The notes under the pieces: model-generated
Databases searched by the model: none
Told to the model about the DNA's origin: nothing
What the model saw: the letters and a program-made list of their open reading frames with translations, nothing else
Assembly (NCBI GenBank): GCA_035510735.1
Contig: DATKGN010000004.1
Span: 177,039-241,038, forward strand
Direction of reading: 5' to 3'
Length of the DNA stretch: 64,000 nucleotides
DNA from: Patescibacteria group bacterium
GTDB taxonomy: Bacteria > Patescibacteriota > Microgenomatia > UBA10105 > UBA927
Made by a program: the position numbers and the translations under genes
Part shown: piece by piece, positions 17,761 through 56,971 of the stretch
How the letters are laid out: each line of letters starts with the position of its first letter
Position numbering within the stretch: the first letter of the stretch is position 1

Positions 17761-17773
17761 AGAAGATTATCGA

Positions 17774-34410: not shown

Positions 34411-34483
34411 ACGGGCTGCAGTAAGCGTTTATACCACAATCTATAGGCCCTAACAAGAGGCTAATGGTATAGAGACAATCGGG

Positions 34484-36676: not shown

Positions 36677-36907
36677 TTGATCGATTACCTTCTTTGATAT
36701 GGGTCTATTATATCAGGAACATAAAATGATGCGATGGTTTTGATTGAGGCACAATACTGTATAATAGATTACAAGAATATTTTTCCTCCTATTCTTACTT
36801 CTCGCCTTATCCCGCTCAAGAGGGACGGCGCCGAGAGCGAATTTAGGAGGACTTAAGATTTGCTAAGCCAAAACTAAGTTTTGGCAAGCAACTCTAAAGG
36901 AGGCAAT

Positions 36908-39785: not shown

Positions 39786-40898
39786 TTATTTCCCCCTGAC
39801 ACGAAGAGAGTCTGCAGTGAATGTTATTCCTAAGGGATTTATGCGGACACGTTTCGATCCTGATGAGACAACTCCCCCATGCCAGACTTTTAACCCGTGG
39901 CGTTTCGCACATTTTTTCACTGTTGGAATATCGTCTGCTGGAAGAAACAGTGCAAACCCCGCACCCATGTTAAACGTTTCATACATTTCTTTATCGCTCA
40001 GTCTGCTTACGGATTGTATATAGGAAAATTCAGGTTGGGGAGCGGGTACACTATCAATAGTGTATGTAAAGTCACGGTCAGCACGCATGAGTTTTCGCCA
40101 CCCGTGTCCGGTGATATTTACCATGTAATGGATGTCTACGTCATGGCCGAAAAGATCTGACACAAATTTTGCATATATATGCGTGGGCCGAAGAAGCGCT
40201 TCACCAAACAATGATCCGTCAGATAAACGAGTAGCATATCCTTTCTGTACGAGCCCAGCGACCGATCTTGCAAGTGTCAATCCGTTTGCGTGAATGCCGC
40301 TACTTTCCACGAGAACAATTGCATCTCCGGAGGTTAATTTGTCGCCCAACGTAAGATGGTTCTTTGGTTGTATGATGCCAACGGCAGAACCCGCCAGATC
40401 AATTGTGTCCGGTCGAAGGATATCCTTGAGCGTCGGCGTCTCACCGCCGCCCCAGATCGCGCCGCTATCACGGCACGCCGCGGCCCAGCCTGTTATCAAG
40501 TCGACAGCACGTTTTTTATCTGAAAACCAATCTGAACCGCCGACGGCAAAATATGCCGTTACTACTTGAGGCGAGGCACCCACGACGATTAAATCGTTTA
40601 CAATCATTGCAACGGTGTCCTTCGCGATTGCTCCATAATAGGATTTGCCCGTGACAGATCTCATCTCATCGGCGACGAGATTTTTTGTTCCTAAGCCCTC
40701 CATCACAAATGCACGGTAGCAGTTTTTTTCTTCCCATACATACGCGGACTCCCCCCGGCTTTTTGAAACTTCATGAACCGATGTATGCCGACCACCGAGT
40801 GACGTACGTTTTCCTTCTCTTTGGGAAAGACGTTTTACTTCGTCTAATATTCGGTAACTGACACCTGCGTCCGCATACGATATGTGTTTCTTCCTCAT
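39786..40898 (-). CDS. purM: phosphoribosylformylglycinamidine cyclo-ligase (AIR synthetase), divergent
   Basis: SYADAGV, GLGTKNLVA, VAMIVNDLIVVGASP, GGGET, SSGIHANG and MYETFNMGAGF align to PurM blocks. Confidence 0.7.
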   Translation of the reverse strand: MRKKHISYADAGVSYRILDEVKRLSQREGKRTSLGGRHTSVHEVSKSRGESAYVWEEKNCYRAFVMEGLGTKNLVADEMRSVTGKSYYGAIAKDTVAMIVNDLIVVGASPQVVTAYFAVGGSDWFSDKKRAVDLITGWAAACRDSGAIWGGGETPTLKDILRPDTIDLAGSAVGIIQPKNHLTLGDKLTSGDAIVLVESSGIHANGLTLARSVAGLVQKGYATRLSDGSLFGEALLRPTHIYAKFVSDLFGHDVDIHYMVNITGHGWRKLMRADRDFTYTIDSVPAPQPEFSYIQSVSRLSDKEMYETFNMGAGFALFLPADDIPTVKKCAKRHGLKVWHGGVVSSGSKRVRINPLGITFTADSLRVRGK

Positions 40899-41827
40899 AT
40901 CTCGAGGGATTTGCGGATAGCGTTTTCAACAGGGTATGTATATTTTTTAAAATGCCTGCCGGTAATTTTTTGATAGACTGCTATATAGCGTTTTGAAAGC
41001 GCGTTCATGAGTGTAGCGGGCATCGTCGGTGGTTTTCCATCTCCACGGTAGCCGCGCTTGGCATACCAGAGCCGTAGAAATTCTTTATCGAAATTTTCCG
41101 GTTCCAATCCTTTTTTAAACCGCTGTTCATACGTTTTGGCTATCCAAAACCGTGAAGAATCTGGCGTGTGGATTTCATCAATAAGCATCAGTTTTCCTTT
41201 ATACAACCCGAATTCGTATTTTGTATCCACAAGAATAAGACCATGCTTTTTGCAGATTCTGCTTCCGCGATCGAATAATGCGAGCGCTGCTTTTTCCATT
41301 TGTTCATACAGTTTTTTTGGAACTATTTTTCTTTTGATTATCTCTTCGCGCGTGAGGCGCTCATCATGTCCGCCTTTGCCCCCTCCGTGAGTGGTCGGCG
41401 TGATAACGGGTTTTGGGAGTTTTTGATTTTTTTTCAGTCCGTCAGGAAAATGTATACCGTAAATGAACCGTTCACCCTGCTCGTATGAATACCAAATGGA
41501 AGTTTTCGTGACGCCGGAGATATATCCACGCACAATCATTTCAATAGGAATAGGTTTTGTATCGTGGGCGATAAGAACATTTGGATGGGGGACTGATATT
41601 TTATGATTCGGGACGATATCGCTTGTCGTGTCAAACCAAAACGCGGAAAGTTGATTTAATACGGCGCCTTTGTATGGTATGTGTCCCAAAATAACATCAA
41701 ACGCGGATTGCCGGTCCGTCGTCACGATGATGCGTTTGCCGTCTTTAATATAAAAATCCCTGACTTTTCCATGTAGTTTTTTTCCGTATTTAGGAAGATT
41801 AATAGTTTTAAGCATGTTAGTTGCCAT
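40895..41827 (-). CDS. purC: phosphoribosylaminoimidazole-succinocarboxamide synthase (long form)
   Basis: KVRDFY...TDRQSAFD and ILVDTKYEFG motifs of SAICAR synthetase. Confidence 0.85.
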   Translation of the reverse strand: MATNMLKTINLPKYGKKLHGKVRDFYIKDGKRIIVTTDRQSAFDVILGHIPYKGAVLNQLSAFWFDTTSDIVPNHKISVPHPNVLIAHDTKPIPIEMIVRGYISGVTKTSIWYSYEQGERFIYGIHFPDGLKKNQKLPKPVITPTTHGGGKGGHDERLTREEIIKRKIVPKKLYEQMEKAALALFDRGSRICKKHGLILVDTKYEFGLYKGKLMLIDEIHTPDSSRFWIAKTYEQRFKKGLEPENFDKEFLRLWYAKRGYRGDGKPPTMPATLMNALSKRYIAVYQKITGRHFKKYTYPVENAIRKSLEI

Positions 41828-42329
41828 ATTTTTTCCAACCCGCGCGGGTTAACGCTATATTTTTCTCGCGGACTCTTTTCTCTAAATCGAGTTTATATAA
41901 CTGTAATCGTTTAGCGAGATGTTCATCTTTGATTGCGAGGATTTGGACAGCGAGTAGCGCAGCGTTTTTCGCGGCATTGATTCCAACGGTTGCAACGGGT
42001 ACTCCAGGCGGCATTTGGACGGTTGAATAGAGCGAGTCTGCTCCACCCAGCGATTTACCGAGTATCGGAATTCCGATAACCGGACGCGCTGTATGGGCGG
42101 CAATGACGCCGGCCAGATGCGCAGCCCCGCCTGCTGCGGCGATAAAGACGAGTACTCCTCCCATGTCGGATTTTTTTACGAACGAGACCGTATCTTCAGG
42201 GCTCCGGTGAGCAGAAAGGACCCGAACGTCAAACGGAATGTTGAATTGCTCTAATATGATAAGTGCATCCCTAACGACTGGGAGATCGGAATCGCTTCCC
42301 ATGAGTACGGCGACAGTGGGTTTAGGCAT
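41817..42329 (-). CDS. purE: 5-(carboxyamino)imidazole ribonucleotide mutase / AIR carboxylase
   Basis: VAVLMGSDSD, SAHRSP and AAGGAAHL motifs. Confidence 0.85.
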   Translation of the reverse strand: MPKPTVAVLMGSDSDLPVVRDALIILEQFNIPFDVRVLSAHRSPEDTVSFVKKSDMGGVLVFIAAAGGAAHLAGVIAAHTARPVIGIPILGKSLGGADSLYSTVQMPPGVPVATVGINAAKNAALLAVQILAIKDEHLAKRLQLYKLDLEKRVREKNIALTRAGWKKYGN

Positions 42330-43731
42330 ATTTTTTTATTGTTTTTGTAATTTCATCGACAAGGGATAGCGCACGCTCCGGTGCGTCACCGATGTGACTG
42401 GCTACATCAAGACACCCACAAATTTCATCATTCTTCAGGTATTGTTTGATAATCTTATTTTGATTGAGGAGATCTGTCATTGGATTTGGCTTTCCTTCCT
42501 GAACTGCTTCCCATGACTTCATGGAAATAGTGCGCAACAGTTCATGCATCTCCTGGCGGTTAGCGCCGCGTTTAACGAGTATAATGAGGATTGATTCGGT
42601 GGCAGCAAACGGGGCAAATTGATTGACATTATATTCAATACGCCGGGTGTTAATGACGAGACCGGAAACAATTTTTTCTGCGGTTATGAGTATTTCATCC
42701 GATGCTAAAAACGCTTCCGACATGACAATCCGTTTGTTTGCAGAATCGTCAAGTGTCCGTTCTAAATAATTTACCGTCGCGTTTCCGAGGGCGACCTCGG
42801 GTAACGATGTAACATACCGTGCGAGAGAACAAATTTTCTCAGAGTTAATCGGATTTCTCTTGAACGGCATCGCGGAAGACCCCACCTGTTTTTTCCCGAA
42901 CGGTTCGCTCCATTCTCCGACCCCGGCAGATTGCAATATACGGACATCGCCAGCGAATTTTGCGAGGGAAGAGGCGATGCTTGCAAGCGCTGAAATTACC
43001 AAAAAATCGTATTTACGAGGGGCAACTTGTGAAGTAATCAGTGATGCCGGTATGCCCAGCGTTTTCATAACGCTCACATCAAGCTCTTTAGGTGACATAC
43101 GACTGCCCGTTAGAGCTGCTTTATAGCTTGCAGAGGAGCCGACTGCTCCTTTCATACCTTTACCTTTATAGATGGAGCGCACAAAGTTGAGAAATGCAAG
43201 GTCGGTTAACAAATCCTGTGCATAAAAAGCCAGTCGGTATCCGACTGTTGTCGGTTCCGCCGGTTGCAGGTGAGTGTACCCCATGCAGGGAGTGGTTGCG
43301 TATGTGCGTATATGAGTAGCAAACAATTTTAAGAGTGTAATGAGACGGGTTTGAATTTCTTCCATCGCTTCATGGATACGAATGGCGTCCGCATTATCGA
43401 CAATATCCATACTGGTAGCACCGAGATGTATTTTTCCGCCACCAACTGGCGATTTCCCAGCAAATTCACGAATTGCGGCGACAACATCATGATTTGTTTC
43501 CTTTTCAATGGAAAGTATTTCAGCGATATCGATATCATCCTCATGACGCTTCAAGTCCTCTAGTTCGTGTTTGGAAACCAGGCCGGCTTCATGCTGCGCC
43601 TCTGCCAGTGCGACCCAAATTTTGCGCCAAATACGATATTTATTTTTTTCACTGAAAATTTCCCTCATGCGGTCGCTACCGTAACGCCAGGAAAAAGGGG
43701 ATACGTAATTGGAAAAATCTGTGCTATTCAT
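42322..43731 (-). CDS. purB: adenylosuccinate lyase
   Basis: Fumarate-lyase signature GSSAMPFKRNP. About 470 aa long form. Confidence 0.85.
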   Translation of the reverse strand: MNSTDFSNYVSPFSWRYGSDRMREIFSEKNKYRIWRKIWVALAEAQHEAGLVSKHELEDLKRHEDDIDIAEILSIEKETNHDVVAAIREFAGKSPVGGGKIHLGATSMDIVDNADAIRIHEAMEEIQTRLITLLKLFATHIRTYATTPCMGYTHLQPAEPTTVGYRLAFYAQDLLTDLAFLNFVRSIYKGKGMKGAVGSSASYKAALTGSRMSPKELDVSVMKTLGIPASLITSQVAPRKYDFLVISALASIASSLAKFAGDVRILQSAGVGEWSEPFGKKQVGSSAMPFKRNPINSEKICSLARYVTSLPEVALGNATVNYLERTLDDSANKRIVMSEAFLASDEILITAEKIVSGLVINTRRIEYNVNQFAPFAATESILIILVKRGANRQEMHELLRTISMKSWEAVQEGKPNPMTDLLNQNKIIKQYLKNDEICGCLDVASHIGDAPERALSLVDEITKTIKKYA

Positions 43732-43735
43732 ATAG

Positions 43736-44833
43736 TTATGTAACGATTTTTTTCAACTGTTTAGAATGAATTGCTTCTTTAATTTCCAGTGCAACGCGCC
43801 TGCCGGCTGACATGCTGGCTCCCCAAAGATACCCTGAATACGGACCTGATGCAATACCCGGAGATCCTGGCATACGGGGCGATACATCGATAACAACAAT
43901 ATCTTTTTTGGGCGGGCCGGAGGTGATGATCGATTGGAGTGCAAACGGACCGATGACGCCGGGTGGATAGAGAATCCTTGTGGCTTTTACAAACGCTTCG
44001 CCTAAAGCGAATGCTTTTTCAAGCATTGATTCCAGCACCGTCACTGCAATATGACCTGATTCTTCAAACGTGAGTGGTGAAGACGCAAGTACAGTATCCT
44101 GATACATAGCTGGCACCCGCAAAAATCCATCAAGATTCGTCTGTCTTCTCGTGTCCGTTCCCATAAGTTCAAGGCGGTTATTAATCTGAGAATAAAAGAA
44201 ATTAAAATTGACTGGGGTTCCAAGGATAAATTCTTCAATAACCTGGGAGTCAAGTGCTGCTTTTGAGATTTTTTTGATCCGTATCAATTCTTTACTTTTT
44301 TTCGTATAGTCCTTAAAACTCGAAACGAGAAAGAACGCTCGTTCATATGTGCGCTCCCGTTCCGCAACTTTCACAATACATAGTCTGTCAATTTCATCCG
44401 GTGAATTGAAATGCCTCGGGTACCGGATCTTGGCTGCATGTAGCACATCATATTGGTTCGGTTTAGTTTTTCGTTCCTCTATTTTTAAGAGAAATTTATT
44501 TCCGAATATCGGTATATGTATATCGTTTTCGATCGCATGATAATCAAAATTGAGATACGCTTCCAGAGATCGGTGGGGGATGAGAATCGCGTTACGTTGT
44601 TGTAATTGTTTTTGAATATTCTTTGTTAACATATCATGAAAATCGTTTACCACGATGCACGTATCGATACATCCGAGACTATTGTGACTACGGTAATAAT
44701 CCGTGTATGTTTTCTCCCGGCCCTTTTGGGCGATCACAAGGGTTGCAAATCCCTCATCTTTTGCACCGCGGCAGACGTCAAGCGCACTGTGGCTTCCGAG
44801 TACCGCGATGGTAACCTTGTTCGTTTTTTCCAT
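43736..44833 (-). CDS. archaeal-type 5-formaminoimidazole-4-carboxamide ribonucleotide synthetase-like (PurP paralog, ATP-grasp)
   Basis: N-terminus VTIAVLGSHSALDV, IPHRSLEAY, PIFGN, and C-terminal GPFALQS ... RVALEIKEA blocks parallel PurP. Confidence 0.65.
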   Translation of the reverse strand: MEKTNKVTIAVLGSHSALDVCRGAKDEGFATLVIAQKGREKTYTDYYRSHNSLGCIDTCIVVNDFHDMLTKNIQKQLQQRNAILIPHRSLEAYLNFDYHAIENDIHIPIFGNKFLLKIEERKTKPNQYDVLHAAKIRYPRHFNSPDEIDRLCIVKVAERERTYERAFFLVSSFKDYTKKSKELIRIKKISKAALDSQVIEEFILGTPVNFNFFYSQINNRLELMGTDTRRQTNLDGFLRVPAMYQDTVLASSPLTFEESGHIAVTVLESMLEKAFALGEAFVKATRILYPPGVIGPFALQSIITSGPPKKDIVVIDVSPRMPGSPGIASGPYSGYLWGASMSAGRRVALEIKEAIHSKQLKKIVT

Positions 44834-44838
44834 TGTTT

Positions 44839-45846
44839 TTAATCGATTATCATGTCTAGTTTGTTTTTTGTGATCGCGAATTTAATTTCCCTGGCAATTC
44901 TTCTCCCGGTACTCATGGGCTCATTATATGTTAACCAGGAGTATGGGGAGCCCTCAATAAACAGGTTGGTGCCGGCAACAATTCTGCATGATATTTCCAT
45001 GGCGTAAAACCGCTGATCAGGAGTGATAACCGTTTCCAAACAAAATGGGCCGATGAGACCCCGGCGGTCAATAAGTTTTTTTGATGTGGCGACTATACGT
45101 TCACCCATCGCGTATGCTTCTGGTAAAAGAGACTCGCGAAGAACGAGCGAACTGTTGCCGACAACCACGTAACTGGGATCGATGTGCATGGAATGTTGAT
45201 ATTGTGAAGGAATTCTTCCCAGCCCGTCGACATTGGTCTCATACCTCCGGTCGATACTCATAAGCTCAACCACATTGGTTAATGGTGAATAAAAATAGTG
45301 CAGATAACATGTTACACCCACGATGTATTGTTGAATAACATAACGGGAGGATTTTATTGAGCGGATTTTTTCCGTAAATTCCTTTTTATTTGCAGCGAGG
45401 AAATATCCCGATCCTCCTGCTGCGCCGAACGTTTTGACAATAACAGGGAACTTTATAGTTTTTTCCGTAAATTCCTGTGGCATCAATATGCAGGCGTCTA
45501 CAATCCACTGTCGTTGCAGCCTGCGGTCTTCTTCCCAATCGAGAACCTTTTTATTTCCGAAATAGGGAATTGTTATTCTTTTATTTCCCTCTTTCCCAAG
45601 ATACGCGACGAAGGATCCGTGGGGGATGAGGATGCAAGTTTCTTTTTTCAATTGTTTTTCAACTTTTGGAAAATCGGAGTAGCGCGTTATCCCGATAACC
45701 TTGTCGATAAACGGAAACCTTCGGTAAAAACTTGCTTTATCGTGAAGTGCGATAAGCATCGTGCGGAATCCCTCATCTTTGGCGCCTTTCATAATCTGAA
45801 GAGCACTGTGGCTTCCGAGCGTGGCGATGGTGGTATTTATTTTCAT
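44839..45846 (-). CDS. purP: archaeal-type FAICAR synthetase (formate- and ATP-dependent AICAR formyltransferase)
   Basis: Blocks [66 protein letters not shown] and RIAREIK match characterised archaeal PurP. The ORF extends to 46095, which would overlap purQ; start at MKINTT preferred. Confidence 0.75.
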
Positions 45847-45847
45847 A

Positions 45848-46651
45848 TTAGTCTTTGAAATATGATACAGCATTTTTAAATAGTTGAAGACCGGGTCCCG
45901 CTGTTGGTACCGGTAAACCTCTCCGAGTATACACCTCTTTGAGATAGGTCCAGTTGGGAAGTTGCGTAAAGAATAGTGCGCGTTCAGGGTGGGGCATAAG
46001 GCCGAGTATTTTTCCGGTCCGATCGGTGATTCCCGCAATATCATCCATGGTGCCGGTCGGGTTAGCGGGGAGATCCTGATATATGCATGTATCACCCCTC
46101 ACATATCGAAGCGCGATCATTCCGTTTTTCCTCATTTGCTCCAACGTCGTCTGTTTGGTGTACAAGCGTCCCTCTCCGTGCCCGATAGGCAAAGAAAACG
46201 TAGTTATCCCCCGAAGCCAGGGTGATGAGCTAAAATTTTTAAGATCTGTCCAGCGATCTATTAACCGTGAGGACGAATTTTGAAGAAGGGCGATGTCCTT
46301 CGTTCCGATTTTTTCACTGAGTCCTGACAAGAGACCCGTATTGACCAAAATCTGGAATCCGTTACAAATTGCAATGACGAGTTTGTCACCTGCGGTAAAC
46401 TGCAAGAGCGCTTCCCATAAATGATTTTTTAACTTATTTGCGTACGCATTACCGGCGCCCGTATCGTCGCCGTATGAGAAGCCTCCTGGAATTACGAGTA
46501 TCTGATAGCGCATTAGTGTACTGGGCCGTTCAATGCAATCGTTGATATGGACAATGTCCGCATAGCTGCCCGCCATGCGGAACCCGAACTGCGTTTCCTC
46601 TTCACAGTTCAATCCGTATCCTGAAAATATAAGCGCTTTTGGTTTTTTCAT
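45848..46651 (-). CDS. purQ: phosphoribosylformylglycinamidine synthase glutaminase subunit
   Basis: Class I GATase with catalytic ICNGFQ and His/Glu. ALIFSGYG N-terminus. Confidence 0.85.
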   Translation of the reverse strand: MKKPKALIFSGYGLNCEEETQFGFRMAGSYADIVHINDCIERPSTLMRYQILVIPGGFSYGDDTGAGNAYANKLKNHLWEALLQFTAGDKLVIAICNGFQILVNTGLLSGLSEKIGTKDIALLQNSSSRLIDRWTDLKNFSSSPWLRGITTFSLPIGHGEGRLYTKQTTLEQMRKNGMIALRYVRGDTCIYQDLPANPTGTMDDIAGITDRTGKILGLMPHPERALFFTQLPNWTYLKEVYTRRGLPVPTAGPGLQLFKNAVSYFKD

Positions 46652-46685
46652 AATTAATATATTATCGTGTTAACATATGAATATA

Positions 46686-49589
46686 CTAATAATCCCGAAA
46701 CGTGCGCTGATATGCCTCTTGCATCGTTCTGAGTGAGCATCGAATAGTCACCTTATTAGCGTTACGTATAACAAAGTATTGTCCGTCAGTCACGCTACCA
46801 ATGAGGCTTAGCACATTCCCGTGCATAATCGACTCAAACTCCTTTTTGTTTTGTGGCGCGACAGTTACAACAATCCTTCCCTGGTTTTCATTCCATAGTA
46901 TGTTTTGCGGAACTTTTGCCGTTCCGGGAACTGCGGATAGGTCGATATCCAATCCCAACATTCCGCCCAATGCGGTTTTGGCAAGTGCGATACCTAATCC
47001 TCCTCGGTACACGCTTATTGCCGAAGCGATTGCATTGTTGCTTGTCATGTTATAAAAAGCACGGTAGAGCGCTGCATTTTTTTTGCCATTCACGGGCGCA
47101 TATGCATCCTCGTGTGTTTCTCCTAAAATATAGATAAGGTCTCCCGGTAATTTAACATCGAGCGAAATACATTTGGTGACATCGGGAATTACGCCGATCG
47201 CCGAGATAAGAAGGGTTGGTGGGATGGAGATCATAACGGGTTTTCCTTCGTCATCAAAGCCTTTAAAATCATTAAACATACTGTCTTTGCCTGATATAAA
47301 CGGCGTGCCGTACACTACGGCATAATCGTAGCAGGCCTGGGCCGCACGTTTGAGCTGCCCCAACCGGACAGGGTCATTTGCGCTACACCAGCAGAAATTA
47401 TCGAGTAGCGCAATATGGTCGACGTCTCCCCCTACCACAACTGCATTTCGTATTGCTGTATCAATTGAACAGGCTGCCATGTAATAGGCGTCATAATCGC
47501 TGTAGCGTGGATATAAACCCTGTGACAGCACAACTCCTTTTTGCGAAGAGAGAACCGGGCGGGAAACGGTTGCGTCGGCATTGATGCGCCCGCGGCCCTG
47601 CAACGGTTTTAATACGGAAAATCCCTGAACCTGATGATCATACTGCTGTGATATAAATGAAAAGCCTGCAATGTTCGGATCTGACAGTTTTGAAAGAAGC
47701 GCTTCTGTTTGGGAATCAAAAAGTTTTGCGTCAACGCCCTTAAGTGTTTTGGGCGGAGCAACTGTTGTAAGCCTGCGTGGTGGGAGACCGTCATGGAGAA
47801 ATTCCATGTCGAGATCCATAACAACCTCTTTATAATAGGTAACCACACACTTGCCTGATTTGGTAAACTCACCGATAACTGTGGCTTCGACGCCCCTTCG
47901 TTTCATGAGACGCGAAAACGCCGGCCACTTATTTTTTGGAACGGCGAGCGTCATGCGTTCCTGCGACTCGGAAATCCACAATTGCCATGGTGCAAGACCA
48001 GGATATTTTACCGGAATTTTATCGAGAGTGACAATGCAGCCGCCCGATTCTTTTGCCATTTCAGCAACGGAACAGGATAAGCCGCCCGCGCCGTTGTCGG
48101 TGATACTATGAAACAATCCAATGTCGCGGGCTTCTTTGACGATCGCGTCGCTTAACTTTTTTTGTGTGATGGGGTCTCCGATCTGAACTGCAGTAGCGGG
48201 GCTGCCGGTGCTCAGGGCCTCAGATGAAAATGTTGCCCCGTGGATGCCGTCAAGCCCAACACGGCCGCCGACCATCACAATGAGGTCGTCGGGTTGAGCA
48301 TGTTTTTCATACATTTTCTTACCTTTTATTTTTCGTGGAAGCAGACCTACGGTTCCTGCAAAAACAAGCGGTTTGCCGCGGTATCTGTCGTCAAAAAATA
48401 TAAATCCCTGCGGGGTCGGAATTCCGGAACAGTTGCCTCCTGCGTTGACCCCTGCTACGACGCCGTCAAAGATGCGCCGCGCTGATAACATCGGTTGTGT
48501 CCGTTCCGTATCGCGATAGAGGATGGAGGTATTTTTTGGCGGCGCCAGGCAAAATCCGTATGTATTAATAATCGGTTTTGCCCCGAGTCCGAATCCGATT
48601 GCGTCGCGATTCACGCCGACGATGCCGGTAATTGCACCGCCAAATGGGTCGAGAGCTGAGGGACTGTTGTGCGTTTCCACTTTATGGGAAATCATAAAGG
48701 TGTCGTCAAACGTGATTGCTCCGCTGTTGTCGGTAAATACAGAAACGCAGATATCCTTTTTCCTTTTTTGTTTTCGAATAATGTCAGTTGCTCTCTTAAT
48801 ATATGTGCGAAACAACCCCTTGGGCACATCATCAATATGGTCGGCAAATATCGTGTGTTTACAGTGTTCGCTCCATGTCTGTGCTATGGACTCAAGCTCT
48901 ATATCCGTTGGGTGCCGTCCGATTTTTCTAAAATATTTTTGTATGGCCTTCATGTAAGTGAGATCAAGAGCGAGAGGGCCACGATGAGTCCCGTCATCAT
49001 TTATAATTCCCTTCTTACCGATGTTCACGAGCTCTTCGTCGGAAACGTCTAGTGACACATCATTTACCCGTTGGGTTTTTGTAAGATGTACTTTCGGGAT
49101 TTGGTACCCGGTACGGTGTCCTTTATGAAATTCTCTGGAGCTTCGCACATATGCGCTTTGAATAAGCGGATTATAGAGACTTGCGGCTACCATTTTTATG
49201 CGTTGATCGGATATGGCACCATCTACAAAAAGTATTTGTGATGTATATACACTTGGTGCATCGAAAAAATCTTTATGCAATGTATCTGCAATCATTTCTT
49301 TCGTGGTATTTCCTATATTATCCGTTACTCCCGGTAAATATCCAATTTCAATCGCCCACGTAAATTTTTTTAGCGCCAGTGGTTTATCTACTGATGCTTT
49401 TTGAGTTAACGGGTGAGTAAGAAGTGGGATAATTCGGGTGACATCTTTTGATGATAAATCGGAGTCGACCGTATAGACATCAACGACATATGTTTTTGTC
49501 ACATTAAATCCGTCCTCGCGCAATCGCTTACATAATGCAATTGCACGAGGATCCGGAACTGTTGATGCTACCTCAATTCTTATTGCCAT
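46686..49589 (-). CDS. purL: PurS-PurL fusion: phosphoribosylformylglycinamidine synthase II with N-terminal PurS-like domain
   Basis: About 80-aa PurS-like N-domain, then the PurL AIRS/AIRS_C duplicated domains. 967 aa. Confidence 0.8.
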   Translation of the reverse strand: MAIRIEVASTVPDPRAIALCKRLREDGFNVTKTYVVDVYTVDSDLSSKDVTRIIPLLTHPLTQKASVDKPLALKKFTWAIEIGYLPGVTDNIGNTTKEMIADTLHKDFFDAPSVYTSQILFVDGAISDQRIKMVAASLYNPLIQSAYVRSSREFHKGHRTGYQIPKVHLTKTQRVNDVSLDVSDEELVNIGKKGIINDDGTHRGPLALDLTYMKAIQKYFRKIGRHPTDIELESIAQTWSEHCKHTIFADHIDDVPKGLFRTYIKRATDIIRKQKRKKDICVSVFTDNSGAITFDDTFMISHKVETHNSPSALDPFGGAITGIVGVNRDAIGFGLGAKPIINTYGFCLAPPKNTSILYRDTERTQPMLSARRIFDGVVAGVNAGGNCSGIPTPQGFIFFDDRYRGKPLVFAGTVGLLPRKIKGKKMYEKHAQPDDLIVMVGGRVGLDGIHGATFSSEALSTGSPATAVQIGDPITQKKLSDAIVKEARDIGLFHSITDNGAGGLSCSVAEMAKESGGCIVTLDKIPVKYPGLAPWQLWISESQERMTLAVPKNKWPAFSRLMKRRGVEATVIGEFTKSGKCVVTYYKEVVMDLDMEFLHDGLPPRRLTTVAPPKTLKGVDAKLFDSQTEALLSKLSDPNIAGFSFISQQYDHQVQGFSVLKPLQGRGRINADATVSRPVLSSQKGVVLSQGLYPRYSDYDAYYMAACSIDTAIRNAVVVGGDVDHIALLDNFCWCSANDPVRLGQLKRAAQACYDYAVVYGTPFISGKDSMFNDFKGFDDEGKPVMISIPPTLLISAIGVIPDVTKCISLDVKLPGDLIYILGETHEDAYAPVNGKKNAALYRAFYNMTSNNAIASAISVYRGGLGIALAKTALGGMLGLDIDLSAVPGTAKVPQNILWNENQGRIVVTVAPQNKKEFESIMHGNVLSLIGSVTDGQYFVIRNANKVTIRCSLRTMQEAYQRTFRDY

Positions 49590-49591
49590 AG

Positions 49592-51766
49592 TTATAATCC
49601 GATATCGGTACGGTATTGCATACCGTTAAAACTAATTTGTTTTCCGATAAGCGCATATACCTGTGCACGGGCTTTTTCTATTGAACTCTCCCACGCAGTG
49701 ATTCCGAGAACTCTTCCGCCGGTTGTAATTGTCGTCGATTCACTCCGCGAGGTGCCGGCATGAAACACAGTCACTGTATTGTTATGCGGTTTCGCTAGCC
49801 CCACTATTTGTATGTTTTTTAAATAGTGCCCCGGATAGCCCGGTGCCGCTAAAACAACACATACGCAGGTTTGGTTGCTGAAAGATACGAGCCGCGGGGA
49901 AAGAGAGCCGTTGAGACAGGCTTCAACGATAGATAATAGATCGCTCTTAAGAAGCGGTAATTGGACCTCTGTTTCGGGGTCTCCAAATCTGCAGTTAAAT
50001 TCCAAAATATAGGGTTTTCCCTCCGCGATCATCAATCCTGCATAGAGAACACCTTGATATGGTCGACCCTCCTTTTTCATGCATTGAACTGCATATTGTA
50101 ATAACTGATATATCTTCTTTAGTTGCTGTGGAGTCGCGTTATCGGATGGCGCCATTGATCCCATGCTTCCGGTATTGGGACCAACATTACCATCTCCGAG
50201 TCGCTTGTAGTCTGAGGTTGCAATAATCGGAGCGACCCGTGTGCCGTCACTAAAGACCATAACTGACACTTCTTTTCCGACAAGTTTTTCCTGAATCACT
50301 ATTCGATCTCCCGCTCGTCCCAACGTTTTATTAATCATAAGCGATCGTATTGCATCACTTGCAGTCTTCATGCTGTCACAGACGAAAACTCCTTTACCCT
50401 GACAGAGCCCGTCCGCTTTAATGACGACATTACCGTTATATTGTCCGCTGTATGCAATTGCAGATTTCGGATCATTGAAAGTCTTTGAGGCTGGACGGGG
50501 GAGGTTGTGGCGTTTTAAAAATTCAGAGGCCCAAACTTTACTGGTTTCTAATTGTGCTGCTTCGCGGGTTGGTCCGAAGATTTGTAGGCCCTCTTGGGTA
50601 AATTTGTTGACGATTCCCAAAGACAGGGGAGCTTCGGGTCCGACGACCGTAACATCAATGCCTGCCGTCTTTGCAAATTGCAGGAGCCCATCAACATTAT
50701 CGGCGGCAATCGGTAAATTTTGGCCTAACGTCGAAGTGCCACCATTGCCCGGGGCAAAGTATAGTTGCCCAATATTTTTTGATTTCGCGAGCTTCCATCC
50801 GATAGCGTGTTCACGGCCGCCTGACCCTACAATCAATATTGTCTTTTTGTCTACGATTTTCATTATTTTTCTTTCAAATTCCTTTTTCAAAGGTAAACCC
50901 ACCCGCGCGCCGGACTTACGTACGCAAAATCCTGCGAGCGTATTGCCTGCATCTGCGCACATTCTTAAATTTTTTTGACGGAGGACCCCCCATAAATAAC
51001 CGGCAATGAACGCATCACCTGCGCCGGTTGTATCTACCGCAGAAACCGAAACCGTAGGAATATGTGTGATGCAATAGATTATGGAAACAAAACATCCGTT
51101 GGATCCGTCCGTGATAACGACAGTGGAAACGCCAAGATCATGCAGTAGTTTTGTTCCTGTTAGATTTTCTTTTCCCGTTAGCGTTTGCAATTCTTCTTTG
51201 GTTAGAAAAACGATTGCGCATCGGCGAAGAATCGGTGTGAGGCGGGTCATCCCCAGTCTGCAGTAGATAATCCCTGGGGCAAAAGAGATAATTATAGTTT
51301 TATGTAATTTAGAAATGAAAGATTCCTGCACACTCAGCTGTTTGGTATTAACGAATGAACTTACGTGCATAATTTTAGTGTGGATTGTTGATGGCGCCGG
51401 CATATCGCGTGAAGTGAGATCGCTATTTATTCCCGGAAAAATATTCAGAAGCCGATGCCCCTTTTTATCTACAAGTCCCAAAACAACACCGCTGTTACCA
51501 GATTTTTTCCGTATTAACGTTGTGTCTACATGGTCTGCCTTAAAAGCCGAGATATGTAATTTCCCCTCCGCGTCATCGCCGATTGTACCGATGAACGCGG
51601 CTTTTTGACCGAGCCGACCCAGTGCGGCTATTGTATTTGCGGCTGACCCGCCGGGTGCGCGTGTTTCGTATTCCACGAGCGCCTCGCCTTCACTTGTAAA
51701 TTGGGGGACTGTGCCCAAGCGATCAACATTCAGCGCACCGAAACCGATAATGTCGTAGGTTTTCAT
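49592..51766 (-). CDS. purD: fusion of PfkB-family (ribokinase-like) sugar/nucleoside kinase with phosphoribosylamine-glycine ligase (PurD)
   Basis: Residues 1-300 carry the GG motif (PGGSAANTIAALG) and the ribokinase anion-hole motif VDTTGAGDAFIAGY. Residues 302-724 are PurD (ILIVGSGGREHA...). No stop codon between the two halves. Confidence 0.8.
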   Translation of the reverse strand: MKTYDIIGFGALNVDRLGTVPQFTSEGEALVEYETRAPGGSAANTIAALGRLGQKAAFIGTIGDDAEGKLHISAFKADHVDTTLIRKKSGNSGVVLGLVDKKGHRLLNIFPGINSDLTSRDMPAPSTIHTKIMHVSSFVNTKQLSVQESFISKLHKTIIISFAPGIIYCRLGMTRLTPILRRCAIVFLTKEELQTLTGKENLTGTKLLHDLGVSTVVITDGSNGCFVSIIYCITHIPTVSVSAVDTTGAGDAFIAGYLWGVLRQKNLRMCADAGNTLAGFCVRKSGARVGLPLKKEFERKIMKIVDKKTILIVGSGGREHAIGWKLAKSKNIGQLYFAPGNGGTSTLGQNLPIAADNVDGLLQFAKTAGIDVTVVGPEAPLSLGIVNKFTQEGLQIFGPTREAAQLETSKVWASEFLKRHNLPRPASKTFNDPKSAIAYSGQYNGNVVIKADGLCQGKGVFVCDSMKTASDAIRSLMINKTLGRAGDRIVIQEKLVGKEVSVMVFSDGTRVAPIIATSDYKRLGDGNVGPNTGSMGSMAPSDNATPQQLKKIYQLLQYAVQCMKKEGRPYQGVLYAGLMIAEGKPYILEFNCRFGDPETEVQLPLLKSDLLSIVEACLNGSLSPRLVSFSNQTCVCVVLAAPGYPGHYLKNIQIVGLAKPHNNTVTVFHAGTSRSESTTITTGGRVLGITAWESSIEKARAQVYALIGKQISFNGMQYRTDIGL

Positions 51767-52677
51767 AGCATTTCCCTCCGGGGCGATCGGGTCTCAATCG
51801 AATGAATTCCCGTTCCCTCATTTCCAGGCCAGATTGCATGATCCCCGACGATTTCTTCCGTTAAATCCAGTCCGTTCTCCAATGCTATACTATTTGTTCC
51901 AATAATTTTCCCTTCTACAACAGAGAGCCTGCCTTCTGCAAACGCTCCTATCGTACGAATGACGAGTTCCGGTTCAAATGCTGCTTCCGCCTGACGGAGT
52001 TCTGTGAATAAGGGGTGAGTCGGTTTATCTTTCAGTGACGTTTGTTCTTGGATAAGCTTTTCCAATTCATCGTGATCAGTTGGCAGCGTGTCCCACAGAC
52101 GGCTTAGATTTATACCATTAATAATTCCCTTGGCAGGAAGACGGAAATAGGCAATTGGGGTACCCGCGTCAAGCGTCGGGATTGCAAGATGCATCATGCC
52201 ACCGATTTCTTTTCTTTTTTCCCGGACCCAAGTCCCTATAACGTTCCAGTACACACCCTCTCTTCCGCCCATTGATAATGGTAAATCGGGGTGGAGATTC
52301 AAGGATGGCAGGGTATTACACCATTCTGATCCTTTTATTACCATGTCTCCAGCCATGATATTGAGATCGGATTTTTCCCGTATTTGTTTCAAGATTGCCG
52401 TATCGTATTCATTTTTATCAGCATCCGTTGGGTTTTTCTTTATTCTCCCGTGCTGTTTAGCAGAATACATAATAAGAGGCACGTCAGAATAGTTATTCAT
52501 TAATCGCGTAAGCAACAGATCGGTCATTCTTCTCGCATCGTCTCCCACCTCTCGGGTAGAAATAACAGCTGAAACGTGCACACCGGGAAGTTCACCTAGG
52601 GTAGCGGCGTCTATGATACCTGTTACTAATTTGTATGCTTCAAAATCGATGAGTGTTGAACTTATGCTTATGTTCAT
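51763..52677 (-). CDS. formyltransferase-domain protein (PurN-like GAR transformylase candidate) with C-terminal extension
   Basis: NIMAGDMVIKGSEW...SLNLHPDLP (N-x-H) and HLAIPTLDAGTPIA (catalytic Asp region) align to the PurN/Fmt formyltransferase core. About 100 extra C-terminal residues. Confidence 0.5.
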   Translation of the reverse strand: MNISISSTLIDFEAYKLVTGIIDAATLGELPGVHVSAVISTREVGDDARRMTDLLLTRLMNNYSDVPLIMYSAKQHGRIKKNPTDADKNEYDTAILKQIREKSDLNIMAGDMVIKGSEWCNTLPSLNLHPDLPLSMGGREGVYWNVIGTWVREKRKEIGGMMHLAIPTLDAGTPIAYFRLPAKGIINGINLSRLWDTLPTDHDELEKLIQEQTSLKDKPTHPLFTELRQAEAAFEPELVIRTIGAFAEGRLSVVEGKIIGTNSIALENGLDLTEEIVGDHAIWPGNEGTGIHSIETRSPRREML

Positions 52678-52683
52678 ATGGTT

Positions 52684-53733
52684 TTATCCGAGTACTGCAG
52701 CATCAGCGCGAATTATTTTTCTCATCTTCGTATGACGTGCTACTAAAGAATTAAACAGAGACTTGTTTTGTGGATTCACGCGAACAAAGTGAGCGTCAGA
52801 ATGTTTGCTTTGTTTTTGAATAAACGATGAGACTGCATCATTGCCTCCCTTGATCCATGCGTTCAGGAGGGGAATGAGAAATTCCATATTCGGTGTTGAA
52901 ACTGCCACTTTTGCTGCCTCTAACGCATAGTGGTTGCCGTTGATTGCTATTGATAATCCACCGGCGCGGTTGATTGCCTGAAAAAGTTCGACATCAGTTA
53001 TGCTGTCTCCAATGTAGATCACATCTTTGAGTGTTACTTTCAACTGTCGAGCAAAACGTTCTGCGGCTTCAACTTTGCGTTTTCCGCCGATGACATGAAT
53101 CGCTGAGAGTATTTCCAAGCCTGCATCAGGAAGATCTTTCCAAAAAAATCGGTCTAGTCGTTTTCGTAGGAAAATACACGACTCATTATTCATAAATAGA
53201 TCTATTGTGGAAGAATTTGTTCCCTCTGAGTTCAACATCCGCAAACAGGAGGGCGTCATTGATTTAATATCTTTTTCAGTTTCGGTAATTACGTTCATTA
53301 TTTTTTTTGTCGAAAATTGACGGTGGAGTTTATCAAGCTGCAAGTCAGTTGATGCGATATCCATGTGGGGAATATTCAGGTGCGCTCCAACCGTTTCCCA
53401 TAAATATGTATACGCAGTAGATATAATCCGGATGTTCCACTCATCATGGCGAAGTTTCCTAACGCATTGCACTACTCCGGGCGTCAACCTTGCATGTTGC
53501 GCGATCTTTTTCATTTTAGCGTCGGTTACACCATGCGAAATAAAGAGAGGGATGATAAGCGCAAGTGTGTCACCTGCCTGGTACTCATCAGGACCATGAA
53601 CGGAAAGATAATCATCATATGCACTCAAAAGTAAAAACAAATTTTTGTCAATGGTCGAGGTGACATCAAGGGCAAAATCATTTGTAACGATAGGACCCTC
53701 GCCGTCAGTAAACAAAACCTTGCGGGTGTTCAT
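52684..53733 (-). CDS. HAD-superfamily-like hypothetical protein with atypical motif I, embedded in pur operon
   Basis: LFTDGEGPIV (D-x-E in place of D-x-D), IISTAY (motif II), K in GGKRK, YIGDSITD (motif IV). Confidence 0.4.
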   Translation of the reverse strand: MNTRKVLFTDGEGPIVTNDFALDVTSTIDKNLFLLLSAYDDYLSVHGPDEYQAGDTLALIIPLFISHGVTDAKMKKIAQHARLTPGVVQCVRKLRHDEWNIRIISTAYTYLWETVGAHLNIPHMDIASTDLQLDKLHRQFSTKKIMNVITETEKDIKSMTPSCLRMLNSEGTNSSTIDLFMNNESCIFLRKRLDRFFWKDLPDAGLEILSAIHVIGGKRKVEAAERFARQLKVTLKDVIYIGDSITDVELFQAINRAGGLSIAINGNHYALEAAKVAVSTPNMEFLIPLLNAWIKGGNDAVSSFIQKQSKHSDAHFVRVNPQNKSLFNSLVARHTKMRKIIRADAAVLG

Positions 53734-55273
53734 AGATGTTTTTGGGCAGTATGTCTTTTATTATTTTGATCCTTTTCGATTTTTGAACGACCGTGTTTCC
53801 ATTTATATCCACCGGCGGCTGATGTCCCGCCATGCAACCCATGCAGAATCCGCGTGTCTTCGGATCTCCCGTAATGGCTTCCCGCAAACCTTCAGCACTT
53901 AAGTATGCCAGTGATTTCGCGCCGAGCTCGATCCTGATTCTCTCAACATCTCCGTTTAAACGGGCAGCGATCAGTTCTTTTGAAGACCGTGTATTTACTC
54001 CCAAGTGGCACGCTTTATCGATTGGAGGACTGACGATGCGCAGATGAACATCAATGACGCCATAATAGTGTTTGAGTAAATAAATAAGACCCCGCGTTAT
54101 ATTTCCACGGACTATCGAGTCATCGACCAGAACGACGCGGCGCCCGTGTAATGCTTGGGCGTCAAAACAAAAATGCTCCAGCACCTTTTGATAGATACTA
54201 TCAATATCGGCAGTCATGAATGTTCGTTGCTCTGTGAGACTGACCGATTTATCCGTAATCGCCTGAAAGTAGGGAAGATCAAGCGCCCGCGCGTAGGTCA
54301 TGCCGCCTTCGATACCTGTTCCCGGGACTCCTATAACCATATTCACTTCACGTAATGAAATAGGCGCTTCACGGGCGAGGATTTTGCCACTGCGTCTCCT
54401 CACATCGTCAATAGTAGGCGACCGTTTCACTGCCCGAATGCTGCTTCGCGGCATGTGCGCTTTGCCCGCACCGTGTTGCAAATAGATATTTTCAAAAATA
54501 CAGAGAGCCCGTTGCCGTTCATGCTGTTTTGCTAAAATGATAAGACCTTTGTCGGAAATTTTAGCAATCGTGCCGGGCATTAATTCAAAATAATCGGTAA
54601 CTCCCATGGCATCCAACGCACTTGTTTCTGAAGCCGCTACCCAAACAAACTGACGTGTTATACTATCCCACAGGTGTCCGTATACAAACGGACGTAACCC
54701 CCAGGAGTCCCTCGCCACATACAGTGCGTTATCCGTGCTTACCACCAAGCTCCATGCGCCGCGTTTGGTCGATAGGACGCGGACGATTCGCTCATCCCAA
54801 TTTTGGCCGTCTGCATCACGGAGTTCTTGAGTGAATAGTAATGTGTCGCTTTGTCCGGATTGTTTCACGTTGGCGCTCTGAGAAAACTGGCCGTTATGAA
54901 CAACCATAAATGTTTCACCTGCCTGTCCAAGTTTTGTGACAATAGGTTGGACGTTATTTGTTGTAAATTCGCCGCTTGTCCCATAGCGTACCTGATAAAC
55001 CCAACTTTTTGCGCGAATTGTCTTAAGATCTTTCGCGATTGACGGGCGAAATACTTCCCGGACCATTCCTTTGTCTTTATGCTCAAAGAGCTGGCCCTTT
55101 TCACTCTTGGCGCAAAAGCCGGCGCCGTCATATCCACGAGTTTGCAATATTGACAGTCCTGCTAACCCAGTTTTGAAGAATTCAAAATCTTTTGGTGCAA
55201 ACGCGGCGACGATGCCGCAGTGGTCCTGAAGGGGTAAACGTTCAGCAACAAAAAAAGGATACGACGATTTCAT
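53705..55273 (-). CDS. purF: amidophosphoribosyltransferase
   Basis: N-terminal CGIVA nucleophile after a short propeptide, Ntn-GATase domain, PRT motif VVLVDDSIVRGNIT. ORF opens at 55324; Met at 55273 has an AGGGA RBS. Confidence 0.85.
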   Translation of the reverse strand: MKSSYPFFVAERLPLQDHCGIVAAFAPKDFEFFKTGLAGLSILQTRGYDGAGFCAKSEKGQLFEHKDKGMVREVFRPSIAKDLKTIRAKSWVYQVRYGTSGEFTTNNVQPIVTKLGQAGETFMVVHNGQFSQSANVKQSGQSDTLLFTQELRDADGQNWDERIVRVLSTKRGAWSLVVSTDNALYVARDSWGLRPFVYGHLWDSITRQFVWVAASETSALDAMGVTDYFELMPGTIAKISDKGLIILAKQHERQRALCIFENIYLQHGAGKAHMPRSSIRAVKRSPTIDDVRRRSGKILAREAPISLREVNMVIGVPGTGIEGGMTYARALDLPYFQAITDKSVSLTEQRTFMTADIDSIYQKVLEHFCFDAQALHGRRVVLVDDSIVRGNITRGLIYLLKHYYGVIDVHLRIVSPPIDKACHLGVNTRSSKELIAARLNGDVERIRIELGAKSLAYLSAEGLREAITGDPKTRGFCMGCMAGHQPPVDINGNTVVQKSKRIKIIKDILPKNIYEHPQGFVY

Positions 55274-55362
55274 CGCAATCGTATCCCTTATGTACAGAGT
55301 AAAAAAGAACGGGTGGGTTGTCAAGAGCTCAATATTGTTTAAGCTTGTGCTTTTTTGGCCAA

Positions 55363-55426: not shown

Positions 55427-56971
55427 ATGCCGATTCCTAGAGCGGGAAGCCTCAAATTCACCTTACAACAAGAACGCTTTTTGCACCCAGAAAAAGAAAT
55501 AACCAAAGACTATCAAGCGGTCTACAAAAAAAACCGTATCGTTGTCGGTTGGCCCAACGGGAAGAAAAAAGTATTTCATGAAATTTCCCGACTCCATACA
55601 GTATGCGTTGTCGGTGTTGCATTAGGCGATGAGGGAAAGGGAAGAATTATTGATAATCTTATAGGGTCGTATTTAAAAACCAAGGGCGTCTCTGGCGTAA
55701 CGGTGATCCGGTTTCAGGGCGGCAATAATTCAGGTCATACCGTTGAAGTAAACGGCGTTCATCTGGCTCTTCATCAAATACCCTGCGGTGTTATGTATAA
55801 TAATGTGACGTGCATCATGGATCGCGGGATGACCATAAATCCCGAAGATCTCGTTGATGAGATCCATATCGTAGAGAAAATAACCGGTAACACAAAAGGA
55901 AAATTGTTTTTATCCGCAGATGCAGTGCTTAATACTGATTTAGATCGGGCGGAAGAATTACTCAATCGTAAGCGTCAGGGGAAATCGGGCGGCGGGACCG
56001 GTCGTGGCATCGGACCGTCATATGCTCATCATTATGATCGGTTAGGATTTCATATTTTTGACTTACTTGGGTCAGATTGGCGGGAAAAATTAGGTGCCCA
56101 GTATGATCGTTATCAAAAAGAATTCAAACTCTACGGATTGACACTTGAAACAGTGGAGGTTCCGGATTTTAAGAAAACAAAAAAAATGCGTCGCGAATAT
56201 AAACGGATGGTAGGGTCAAGGGAAGAGTTTTTACACCGCATCGGTAGGGCACGTAAAGAATTGATCGCGAGAAAATTAATTACCAATACGTTTCCTCTGC
56301 ACGAGCGGGTCTATCAAAAAAAATCAGAAGCGGTTCTGTTTGAGGGCGCCCAATCATTAGGTTTGCATGCCTGGCTTGGGACGGTGCCGGATATCACGGC
56401 ATCCGATACATCAACGTTCGGCATACAAAGCGGGACTGCCTTTTGGAAAATGCAGAATATTGAAGACCGTATAGGAATTTTTAAAGTTCCCTATACATCA
56501 AGTGTTGGTGCGCGTCATATGCCGACACAAGCTGATGAAGCGTGGGCAACGAAAGTCCGGGATGAGGCGCATGAATATGGGACAACAACAGGAAGACCGC
56601 GCGATATTTTATACCCGGATCTCCCGCTTCTTTCTTATAATATCCGCATGTCGGGCGTCGAAATGATCATAGGAACCCACTTGGATACTTCGTGGGAGGA
56701 TGTTCCCATTAAGGTCTGTACACACTATACAGATAAAAAGGGAAATACCCTCCCGTATCAACCCGGATTGCATCATCTCGTTGGCGTGGTTCCTCATTAC
56801 ATTACCTTGCCAGGATGGGATGGGGTAAAGGTTAGGAGTGCGAAATCATTCAAACAGCTTCCTGAAAACGCAAAAAAGTTTTTGGCGTTTTTACAATTGC
56901 GGCTGGGGACTCCGATTATTGCGGTAACAACCGGACCGGCGCGGGAAAATTATATTACCACTCCATCTTAA
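55427..56971 (+). CDS. purA: adenylosuccinate synthetase with N-terminal extension
   Basis: GDEGKGRIID P-loop, GGNNSGHTVE, GTTTGRPR. About 55 extra N-terminal residues and several insertions (514 aa vs about 430). Confidence 0.85.
   Translation: MPIPRAGSLKFTLQQERFLHPEKEITKDYQAVYKKNRIVVGWPNGKKKVFHEISRLHTVCVVGVALGDEGKGRIIDNLIGSYLKTKGVSGVTVIRFQGGNNSGHTVEVNGVHLALHQIPCGVMYNNVTCIMDRGMTINPEDLVDEIHIVEKITGNTKGKLFLSADAVLNTDLDRAEELLNRKRQGKSGGGTGRGIGPSYAHHYDRLGFHIFDLLGSDWREKLGAQYDRYQKEFKLYGLTLETVEVPDFKKTKKMRREYKRMVGSREEFLHRIGRARKELIARKLITNTFPLHERVYQKKSEAVLFEGAQSLGLHAWLGTVPDITASDTSTFGIQSGTAFWKMQNIEDRIGIFKVPYTSSVGARHMPTQADEAWATKVRDEAHEYGTTTGRPRDILYPDLPLLSYNIRMSGVEMIIGTHLDTSWEDVPIKVCTHYTDKKGNTLPYQPGLHHLVGVVPHYITLPGWDGVKVRSAKSFKQLPENAKKFLAFLQLRLGTPIIAVTTGPARENYITTPS

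Follow-up and report, generated by a model that had tools for sequence, protein, structure and literature searches.

We analysed a stretch of 64,000 nucleotides (the window) from a Patescibacteria group bacterium (contig DATKGN010000004.1, positions 177,039 to 241,038), in which two open reading frames (ORFs) lie between purF and the gene encoding PurD. The two ORFs belong to a widely conserved module of three enzymes: a PurN-type formyltransferase, a HAD protein of the AF1437/'EhaR' type and a ribokinase-like kinase. In our estimate the chances are even that they are two parts of a module serving the stage of purine synthesis that leads from phosphoribosylamine (PRA) through glycinamide ribonucleotide (GAR) to formylglycinamide ribonucleotide (FGAR). 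The catalytic residues of the formyltransferase, the HAD protein and the kinase are intact. The genes stand in a minus-strand pur operon as follows (lengths in amino acids, aa).

53705..55324, minus strand: purF (amidophosphoribosyltransferase), operon gene 1; TIGR01134, E 2.6e-60, 205 bits, under the curated cut-off of 350.
52684..53733, minus strand: HAD-IB protein of the AF1437/'EhaR' family, 349 aa; PDB 1Y8A, E 2.9e-23; family signature present.
51763..52677, minus strand: PurN-type formyltransferase, 'long' variant, 304 aa; TIGR00639, 30.6 bits; PurN fold match.
50852..51766, minus strand: ribokinase-like PfkB kinase domain, residues 1-305 of a 724-aa fusion; PF00294, E 1.6e-45.
49592..50842, minus strand: PurD (GAR synthetase) domain, residues 310-724, fused C-terminal to the kinase; TIGR00877, E 1e-140; GARS_N, GARS_A and GARS_C.
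39786..49589, minus strand: remaining operon, purL to purM; NCBIfam and Pfam assignments.

The operon is tightly packed and runs purF, HAD, formyltransferase, PfkB::purD, purL, purQ, two purP, purB, purE, purC, purM. The start of the HAD gene overlaps the 3' end of purF by 29 nt, the formyltransferase gene starts 6 nt past the HAD stop, and its own stop overlaps PfkB::purD by 4 nt. The original prediction had placed the two ORFs between purF and purD and had treated them as real genes. The coordinates and the TIGR01134 and TIGR00877 matches confirm the placement; many homologues and confident structural models (pLDDT, the predicted local distance difference test, 93.0 and 92.6) show that they are not chance ORFs. 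The analysis added to it that the 'purD' gene (49592-51766, minus strand) encodes the 724-aa PfkB::PurD fusion, and that the HAD protein has a homologue of solved structure, 1Y8A. The closest relatives of the window proteins are from Gottesmanbacteria, members of the candidate phyla radiation (CPR).

Scanning one genome per GTDB species, we found relatives of the HAD protein in the genomes of 418 species. The best 80 of these 418 relatives gave us 80 species' loci holding the HAD gene for the locus survey. A PurN-like gene directly adjoins the HAD gene in 53 of the 80 loci; in 48 it is on the same strand, often overlapping, and in 5, from Thermoplasmata, it is divergent. The ribokinase-like PfkB gene lies directly downstream of the HAD gene in 43 loci and within 8 kb of it in 49. 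The trio occurs in Chloroflexota/Dehalococcoidia, Armatimonadota-like lineages, Thermoplasmata/Methanomassiliicoccales, CPR and Syntrophomonadaceae. Several gene orders were seen (formyltransferase-HAD-PfkB; HAD-formyltransferase-PfkB::PurD; formyltransferase-PurD-HAD-PfkB; PfkB-formyltransferase-HAD; and HAD-PfkB with the formyltransferase divergent), which argues for repeated selection over a single inherited arrangement. The HAD-PfkB pair is also found in the AF1437 clade, in Geoglobus acetivorans and three other archaeal contigs; at the AF1437 locus of Archaeoglobus fulgidus itself, neither a kinase nor a formyltransferase gene is nearby. Fragments of AF1437, used as queries in a homology search, brought up mainly Archaeoglobi. 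The three parts belong to known superfamilies, and the trio itself is undescribed: we found no description of it in the literature on EhaR, AF1437, MTH401-404/ftrII or GAR formyltransferase with HAD/PfkB.

Some loci carry further neighbours. In two Levybacteria-like loci, an AAA_28 P-loop kinase stands in place of PfkB after the HAD gene, within pur operons (L006, 9086-9622; L009, 9110-9643). A further 313-aa HAD_2 protein is encoded next in L009 (9640-10581). A 215-aa PHP-domain phosphoesterase is encoded directly upstream of the PurN-like gene, often overlapping it, in L001 (5622-6269) and 40 other Chloroflexota loci, and in Chloroflexota only. Other archaeal neighbours (Fe repressor/FeoB, HMG-CoA synthase, PcrB, thermosome, a FolC-like Mur ligase) were considered as clues and set aside as lineage-specific and uninformative.

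Besides the window, loci in which the trio sits within a pur operon are L008, L006, L009 and L088 from CPR, L029 and L019 from Chloroflexota, and L065 from a metagenome-assembled genome (MAG) of Syntrophomonadaceae. The order in L029 is purF-formyltransferase-HAD-PfkB-purD, which is the same slot as in the window. In L019 the formyltransferase and the HAD protein are fused in one 562-aa ORF directly after purF (formyltransferase profile, E 1.8e-47; HAD profile, E 3e-116), and the PfkB::PurD fusion recurs in the relative L008. In a third kind of fusion, found in P0414 and P0418 on three contigs, a divergent 540-595-aa ATP-grasp domain of the PurT/PurK family is N-terminal to the HAD part.

P0414: L098, 3416-6115, 899 aa, ATP-grasp::HAD.
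P0418: L096, 1026-3911, 961 aa, ATP-grasp::HAD.

The HAD part of both is of the AF1437 type, with the motif 'SDWEGPW'. The only family matches of the fused ATP-grasp domain are PurT (E 2.5e-8), the formate-dependent GAR transformylase, and then PurK. The domain carries the PurT-like strings GGGEIATEIAI, KPESTTSGHGQ and NEISYRPDDAGFVTL. No homologue of it was found among the fetched loci, and for P0376, P0346 and P0358 no family that would be informative matched the N-terminal domains. The purine function that had been proposed for the two ORFs from their position is supported by the recurrence of the HAD, formyltransferase and kinase genes in pur operons of other CPR, Chloroflexota and the Syntrophomonadaceae MAG and by the fusions to PurD and to PurT-like domains.

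The 304-aa protein has no match in Pfam, and the NCBIfam PurN model (TIGR00639) gives 30.6 bits, under its cut-off of 150.1. Using 54 homologues as input, we obtained an AlphaFold (AF2) model with a pLDDT of 93.0. In a search of the PDB with this model, the top 16 matches were all PurN structures (3tqr, 3auf, 1cde and others), with template modelling (TM) scores of 0.72-0.79 on the target. PurN ranked above PurU, sugar N-formyltransferases, ArnA and Fmt, the last of which appeared at the 48th place. The protein aligns along its full length with E. coli PurN. Asn127, His129, Asp170, His163 and Glu235 correspond to Asn106, His108, Asp144, His137 and Glu173 of E. coli PurN, so that the N-x-H...D arrangement noticed in the original prediction matches the catalytic residues of PurN. 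Four of these, Asn127, His129, Asp170 and Glu235, do not vary within the family (54 homologues for the first three). With PurN structures heading the fold search and the catalytic residues preserved, this protein is most likely the GAR transformylase of the patescibacterial host, conceivably with the unusual formyl donor that the original prediction had suggested. Homology to Fmt had been named as a result that would speak for another function; the predicted structure favours PurN, and the C-terminal tRNA-binding domain of Fmt is absent from the protein.

The extra length proved to be of a different kind from the C-terminal extension of about 100 residues that had been claimed. It amounts to 92 residues: 32 in one internal insertion (193-224), about 30 in several small ones and 30 in a tail (275-304), the last 14 residues of which are predicted to be disordered. 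The 32-aa insertion is common to 'long PurNs' of about 275 aa that are annotated as PurN in Dehalococcoidia and other lineages, and the tail is confined to the Gottesmanbacteria clade. The loop that binds the GAR phosphate also differs: G11-S12-N13 of E. coli is replaced by D11-F12-E13, and the G-x-G-S-N loop is not kept. Acidic residues mark this loop throughout the Gottesmanbacteria/Levybacteria (CPR) clade, whereas other long PurNs have S-T-G-R-G/D at this place. The protein shares with PurN (PF00551/TIGR00639; E. coli PurN, PDB 1CDE) the fold, the Asn-His-Asp set, the equivalents of His137 and Glu173 and the site in the pur operon. It differs from PurN in its identity of about 18-20%, under the Pfam and NCBIfam thresholds, in the insertion, the clade-specific tail and the D-F-E loop, and in the coupling of its gene to HAD and kinase genes.

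The 349-aa protein is homologous to AF1437 of A. fulgidus (PDB 1Y8A) at E 2.9e-23 and 23% identity. By sequence it is a member of the AF1437/'EhaR' family, of HAD-IB type; 1Y8A is a structural-genomics protein without an assigned function. For the AF2 model of the window protein (pLDDT 92.6), the best fold match is 1Y8A (TM 0.77/0.85), and the phosphoserine phosphatases (SerB, HAD subfamily IB) come next. Searched with a profile, 1.84 billion representatives yielded 310 clusters at 50% identity with E <= 1e-30. Many homologues are labelled by JGI as 'energy-converting hydrogenase A subunit R' (EhaR). The window protein shares with AF1437/EhaR the D-W/G/L-E-G-P motif I, the GDSI(S/T)D motif IV and the partnership with a PfkB kinase. 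In contrast to these, it is bacterial and is not encoded in an Eha hydrogenase operon; no hydrogenase genes were found in the window or in the bacterial loci.

Motifs II-IV of the HAD superfamily and an unusual D-x-E motif I had been noticed in the original prediction, and all of them were found: motif I D10-G-E12-G-P, motif II S105-T106, motif III K220 and motif IV G-D243-S-I-T-D247. The chain ends in a conserved C-terminal helix (R338, R342) terminating in L-G. The whole signature, D10-x-E12-G13-P14, S105-T106, K220, G-D243-S-I-T/S-D247 and R338...R342...L-G, is near-invariant in 481 distinct members. The nucleophile Asp, the Ser/Thr, the Lys, the acidic pair and, in the fold search, the Rossmannoid core of the superfamily are present; the canonical D-x-D is not, since 459 of the 464 members aligned carry Glu at nucleophile +2. 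Because the signature is near-invariant, the D-x-E is a trait of the family, on an otherwise complete predicted phosphoryl-transfer site, and not a sign of decay.

A similar motif I, D-x-E-G, together with a GDSxxD motif IV, is found in ThrH (PDB 1RKU, sequence checked), which acts by transfer through a phospho-enzyme. ThrH is a HAD-IB enzyme that moves phosphate from phosphoserine to homoserine (PMC1079889). In an hhalign comparison of the window protein with ThrH, the probability was 74.5% over only the N-terminal 110 columns, and D10/E12 paired with D7/E9. The NCBIfam ThrH model does not match the window protein and weakly matches its relative P0376. ThrH is shorter, at 205 aa, has neither the extra helical insert nor the C-terminal Arg helix of the window protein, and acts on amino acids. 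This distant similarity, together with the SerB structures that follow 1Y8A in the fold search and with SerB (TIGR00338) as the best NCBIfam match at 48 bits, raises the idea of a phosphoserine phosphatase or ThrH-like enzyme supplying serine, and through it glycine for PurD and one-carbon units for PurN. We consider it very improbable. The SerB score is far under its cut-off of 144.15, identity to phosphoserine phosphatases is 11-14%, neither glyA nor folD was found nearby, the ribose-binding kinase would be left without a role, and methanogens have a separate phosphoserine phosphatase.

The original prediction had also named the missing inosine monophosphate (IMP) cyclohydrolase as a candidate role for the two proteins. 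Among the window ORFs scanned, which were not all of the ORFs, there was indeed no PurH or PurO although two PurP paralogues are present, and no PurT, PurK or second PurN. Neither protein, however, resembles PurO or the N-domain of PurH in sequence and fold searches. The formyltransferase keeps its formyl-transfer residues, the HAD protein keeps its phosphoryl-transfer site, and the links of the module are with PurD, PurF, PurN and PurT-like domains but not with PurP. In Methanobacteriales, PurO and ehaR occur side by side in the same organisms (PMC3261824, PMC3087415). A cyclohydrolase role is therefore hardly credible for either protein.

The name EhaR leads to a parallel in methanogens. In the Methanothermobacter eha operon, the last genes, ehaS and ehaT, which follow ehaR, were once annotated as a second formylmethanofuran:tetrahydromethanopterin formyltransferase (Ftr) and a ribokinase, and were later renamed hydrogenase subunits owing to co-transcription (Kaster et al., PMC3087415). 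For Methanobacteriales, Archaeoglobi and M. kandleri, Brown et al. were unable to identify a GAR formyltransferase (PMC3261824). Taken together, formyl-transfer enzymes with three unrelated folds (PurN-like, PurT-like and Ftr-like) have the HAD protein and a ribokinase-like kinase as neighbours. We tentatively suggest that EhaR/S/T might be the missing archaeal GAR formyltransferase system and not hydrogenase subunits, that the HAD protein and a riboside kinase might be required partners of the formyltransferase in use, be it PurN-like, PurT-like or Ftr-like, and that GAR might be formylated by three enzymes in many anaerobes. Another possible candidate for the missing archaeal enzyme is a standalone form of the ATP-grasp domain of P0414 and P0418.

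The third member of the module, the PfkB kinase, scores 135 bits with ribokinase and about 103 bits with ribose-1-phosphate kinases, all under the cut-offs, and is about equally close to both. We compared it with E. coli RbsK. The family keeps N14, D16, GG, N46 and D255 of RbsK, which we take to be the ligands of the ribose 2',3'-hydroxyls and the catalytic Asp. The family departs from RbsK at K43, which is Ser throughout, and at E143, where Gln or Pro is found. Pairs of a PfkB kinase and a HAD protein that are encoded together and act on one sugar phosphate are also known in HldE/GmhB, a pair of ADP-heptose synthesis, and in the haloarchaeal ribose-1-phosphate kinase and ribulose bisphosphate phosphatase. 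Unlike those pairs, the window pair has no isomerase, aldolase or, as a rule, nucleotidyltransferase beside it, and its partner is a formyltransferase.

It is possible to read the kinase and the HAD protein as a supply line for pentose phosphate. The kinase would convert ribose-1-phosphate to ribose-1,5-bisphosphate, and the HAD protein would remove the anomeric 1-phosphate, giving ribose-5-phosphate for phosphoribosyl pyrophosphate (PRPP). The pair would then be an ATP-driven substitute for phosphopentomutase, and the formyltransferase an ordinary PurN linked to it at the pathway level only. The kinase matches the ribose-1-phosphate kinases of Thermococcales and Halobacteria about as well as ribokinase. 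The changes of E143 to Gln or Pro and of I100 to Gly would free room at C1, and a Glu in place of the general-acid Asp would fit a good leaving group such as the anomeric oxygen. A purine nucleoside phosphorylase gene lies within the window (57606-58460), and an MTAP/PNP-type phosphorylase gene is directly upstream of the HAD gene in Altiarchaeales (L067). There is also a precedent in haloarchaea, where a PfkB ribose-1-phosphate kinase and a HAD phosphatase act on pentose bisphosphates (PMC9700705). However, a supply of pentose phosphate leaves unexplained why the HAD protein should go with formyl-transfer enzymes in particular, across three unrelated folds, and not with purF or prs. No ribose-1,5-bisphosphate isomerase, Rubisco or AMP phosphorylase was seen beside the HAD-PfkB pair in the examined loci, and autotrophic methanogens have little ribose-1-phosphate to salvage. 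We regard this supply as unlikely to be the function of the pair.

Given the conserved context, the fusions and the methanogen gene order, we infer that the HAD protein and the kinase partner whichever enzyme formylates GAR. Possibly, and this we put forward only tentatively, they manage the 5'-phosphate of a ribosyl intermediate around formylation, as a phosphate shuttle. The HAD protein would take the phosphate of the intermediate onto Asp10, forming a phospho-enzyme, and the phosphate would be given back in one of two ways, by the phospho-enzyme itself through transfer or by the kinase at the expense of ATP. The methanogen ehaR/S/T would be an equivalent system with an Ftr-type formyltransferase. 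In favour of the shuttle we count that the link is with formylation in particular, that the HAD protein has a Glu like that of ThrH, that the PfkB protein has the character of a riboside kinase and that this kinase is replaceable. In ThrH, both water and an acceptor alcohol can receive the phosphate.

Several observations weigh against a function of the trio in GAR formylation. Removing a phosphate and putting it back is a shunt without obvious benefit, and canonical PurN needs no partner. For all members, the function of the module is read from context and sequence. Conservation of the context in relatives, which the original prediction had looked to, held for the formyltransferase and the kinase and did not hold for pur genes in general: most Dehalococcoidia and Thermoplasmata carry the trio outside pur operons. 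The HAD gene stands alone in 11 loci of ANME/Methanosarcinales. In CPR locus L088 the HAD gene is paired with a short PurN bearing a normal GGGS phosphate loop, and in Chloroflexota locus L095 the syntenic site still has a long PurN, with neither the HAD protein nor the kinase. The formyltransferase::HAD fusion of L019 was seen once and may be an assembly artefact. The likeness of the fused ATP-grasp domain to PurT rests on about 33 bits. The link to methanogens rests on old annotations (PMC3087415) and on the JGI 'EhaR' names.

Locus L095, where the formyltransferase works without the pair, would be compatible with a role in metabolite repair or salvage. In that case the formyltransferase would give rise to a dead-end phosphorylated by-product, or GAR or FGAR would lose their phosphate; the HAD protein would clear the by-product, and the kinase would bring the ribose or riboside back into the pathway. 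This would also account for the association with any type of formyltransferase and for a 'ribokinase' in autotrophs. No such by-product is known, however, PRA levels are very low, and the fusions and the close translational coupling point to a place in the main pathway. Repair is in our view quite improbable, and we retain the tentative phosphate shuttle as the working reading of the pair.

The remaining genes of the neighbourhood were also inspected.

46686-49589, minus strand: purL, 967 aa, with an N-terminal extension.
45848-46651, minus strand: purQ.
44839 to about 45846, minus strand: purP paralogue 1.
43736-44833, minus strand: purP paralogue 2.
57606-58460: purine nucleoside phosphorylase.

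PurL has about 200 extra residues at its N-terminus. The PurL of L088, a homologous locus found via the HAD protein, shows a faint PurS match and an FGAR amidotransferase (FGAR-AT) linker, suggesting a PurS-PurL fusion. The two PurP paralogues, archaeal-type formate-dependent formyltransferases of aminoimidazole carboxamide ribonucleotide (AICAR), stand in tandem (43736-46095, minus strand) in a bacterium, and the same pair flanks purA in L088. The listed ORF of the first copy extends 248 nt into purQ; its true start is probably near residue 84. PurF has the Cys-Gly-Ile nucleophile context at its N-terminus, and its PRPP loop reads DDSIVRGNIT. We considered the RGNIT of this loop as a sign of an altered 5-phosphate site and dropped the idea, since RGNT is found in Chloroflexota PurFs too. 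An RGNT loop is also present in animal PPAT.

On the other side of purF lie a divergent purA, then the purine nucleoside phosphorylase gene, guaB, guaA and an XPRT-like gene. PurA (55427-56971, plus strand) has an N-terminal extension of about 57 residues. The 202-aa ORF after purA (57017-57625, plus strand) has no family match and no relatives among the fetched loci. It starts with 'IAIDLEGTII', which is a second D-x-E HAD-like motif I in the neighbourhood of the HAD gene. Neither the window nor the region upstream of purF gave a match to a riboswitch or other RNA family in Rfam, and the window showed no tRNA; promoter-like and terminator-like sites in the window were at chance level only. 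Elsewhere the window encodes an ice-binding-like protein (2497-3702), two adjacent homologues of GH130 mannoside phosphorylases (16792-19624), two adjacent PBP1A-type penicillin-binding proteins (31810-36676) and a Mn/Fe superoxide dismutase (36881-37513).

The module gives the structural-genomics orphan 1Y8A a testable function and raises the question whether EhaR, EhaS and EhaT are rightly classed as hydrogenase subunits. For Methanobacteriales, Archaeoglobi and Methanopyrus, whose GAR formyltransferase has been missing since at least 2011, it also provides specific candidates. If EhaR/S/T do formylate GAR, their co-transcription with Eha would fit the anaplerotic role of Eha, which would replace the formyl units withdrawn for purines. 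Even if the HAD protein and the kinase only supply ribose-5-phosphate, they would still be a new substitute for phosphopentomutase. The trio suggests that the first purine steps of energy-limited anaerobes and CPR bacteria may include an extra phosphoryl-transfer element.

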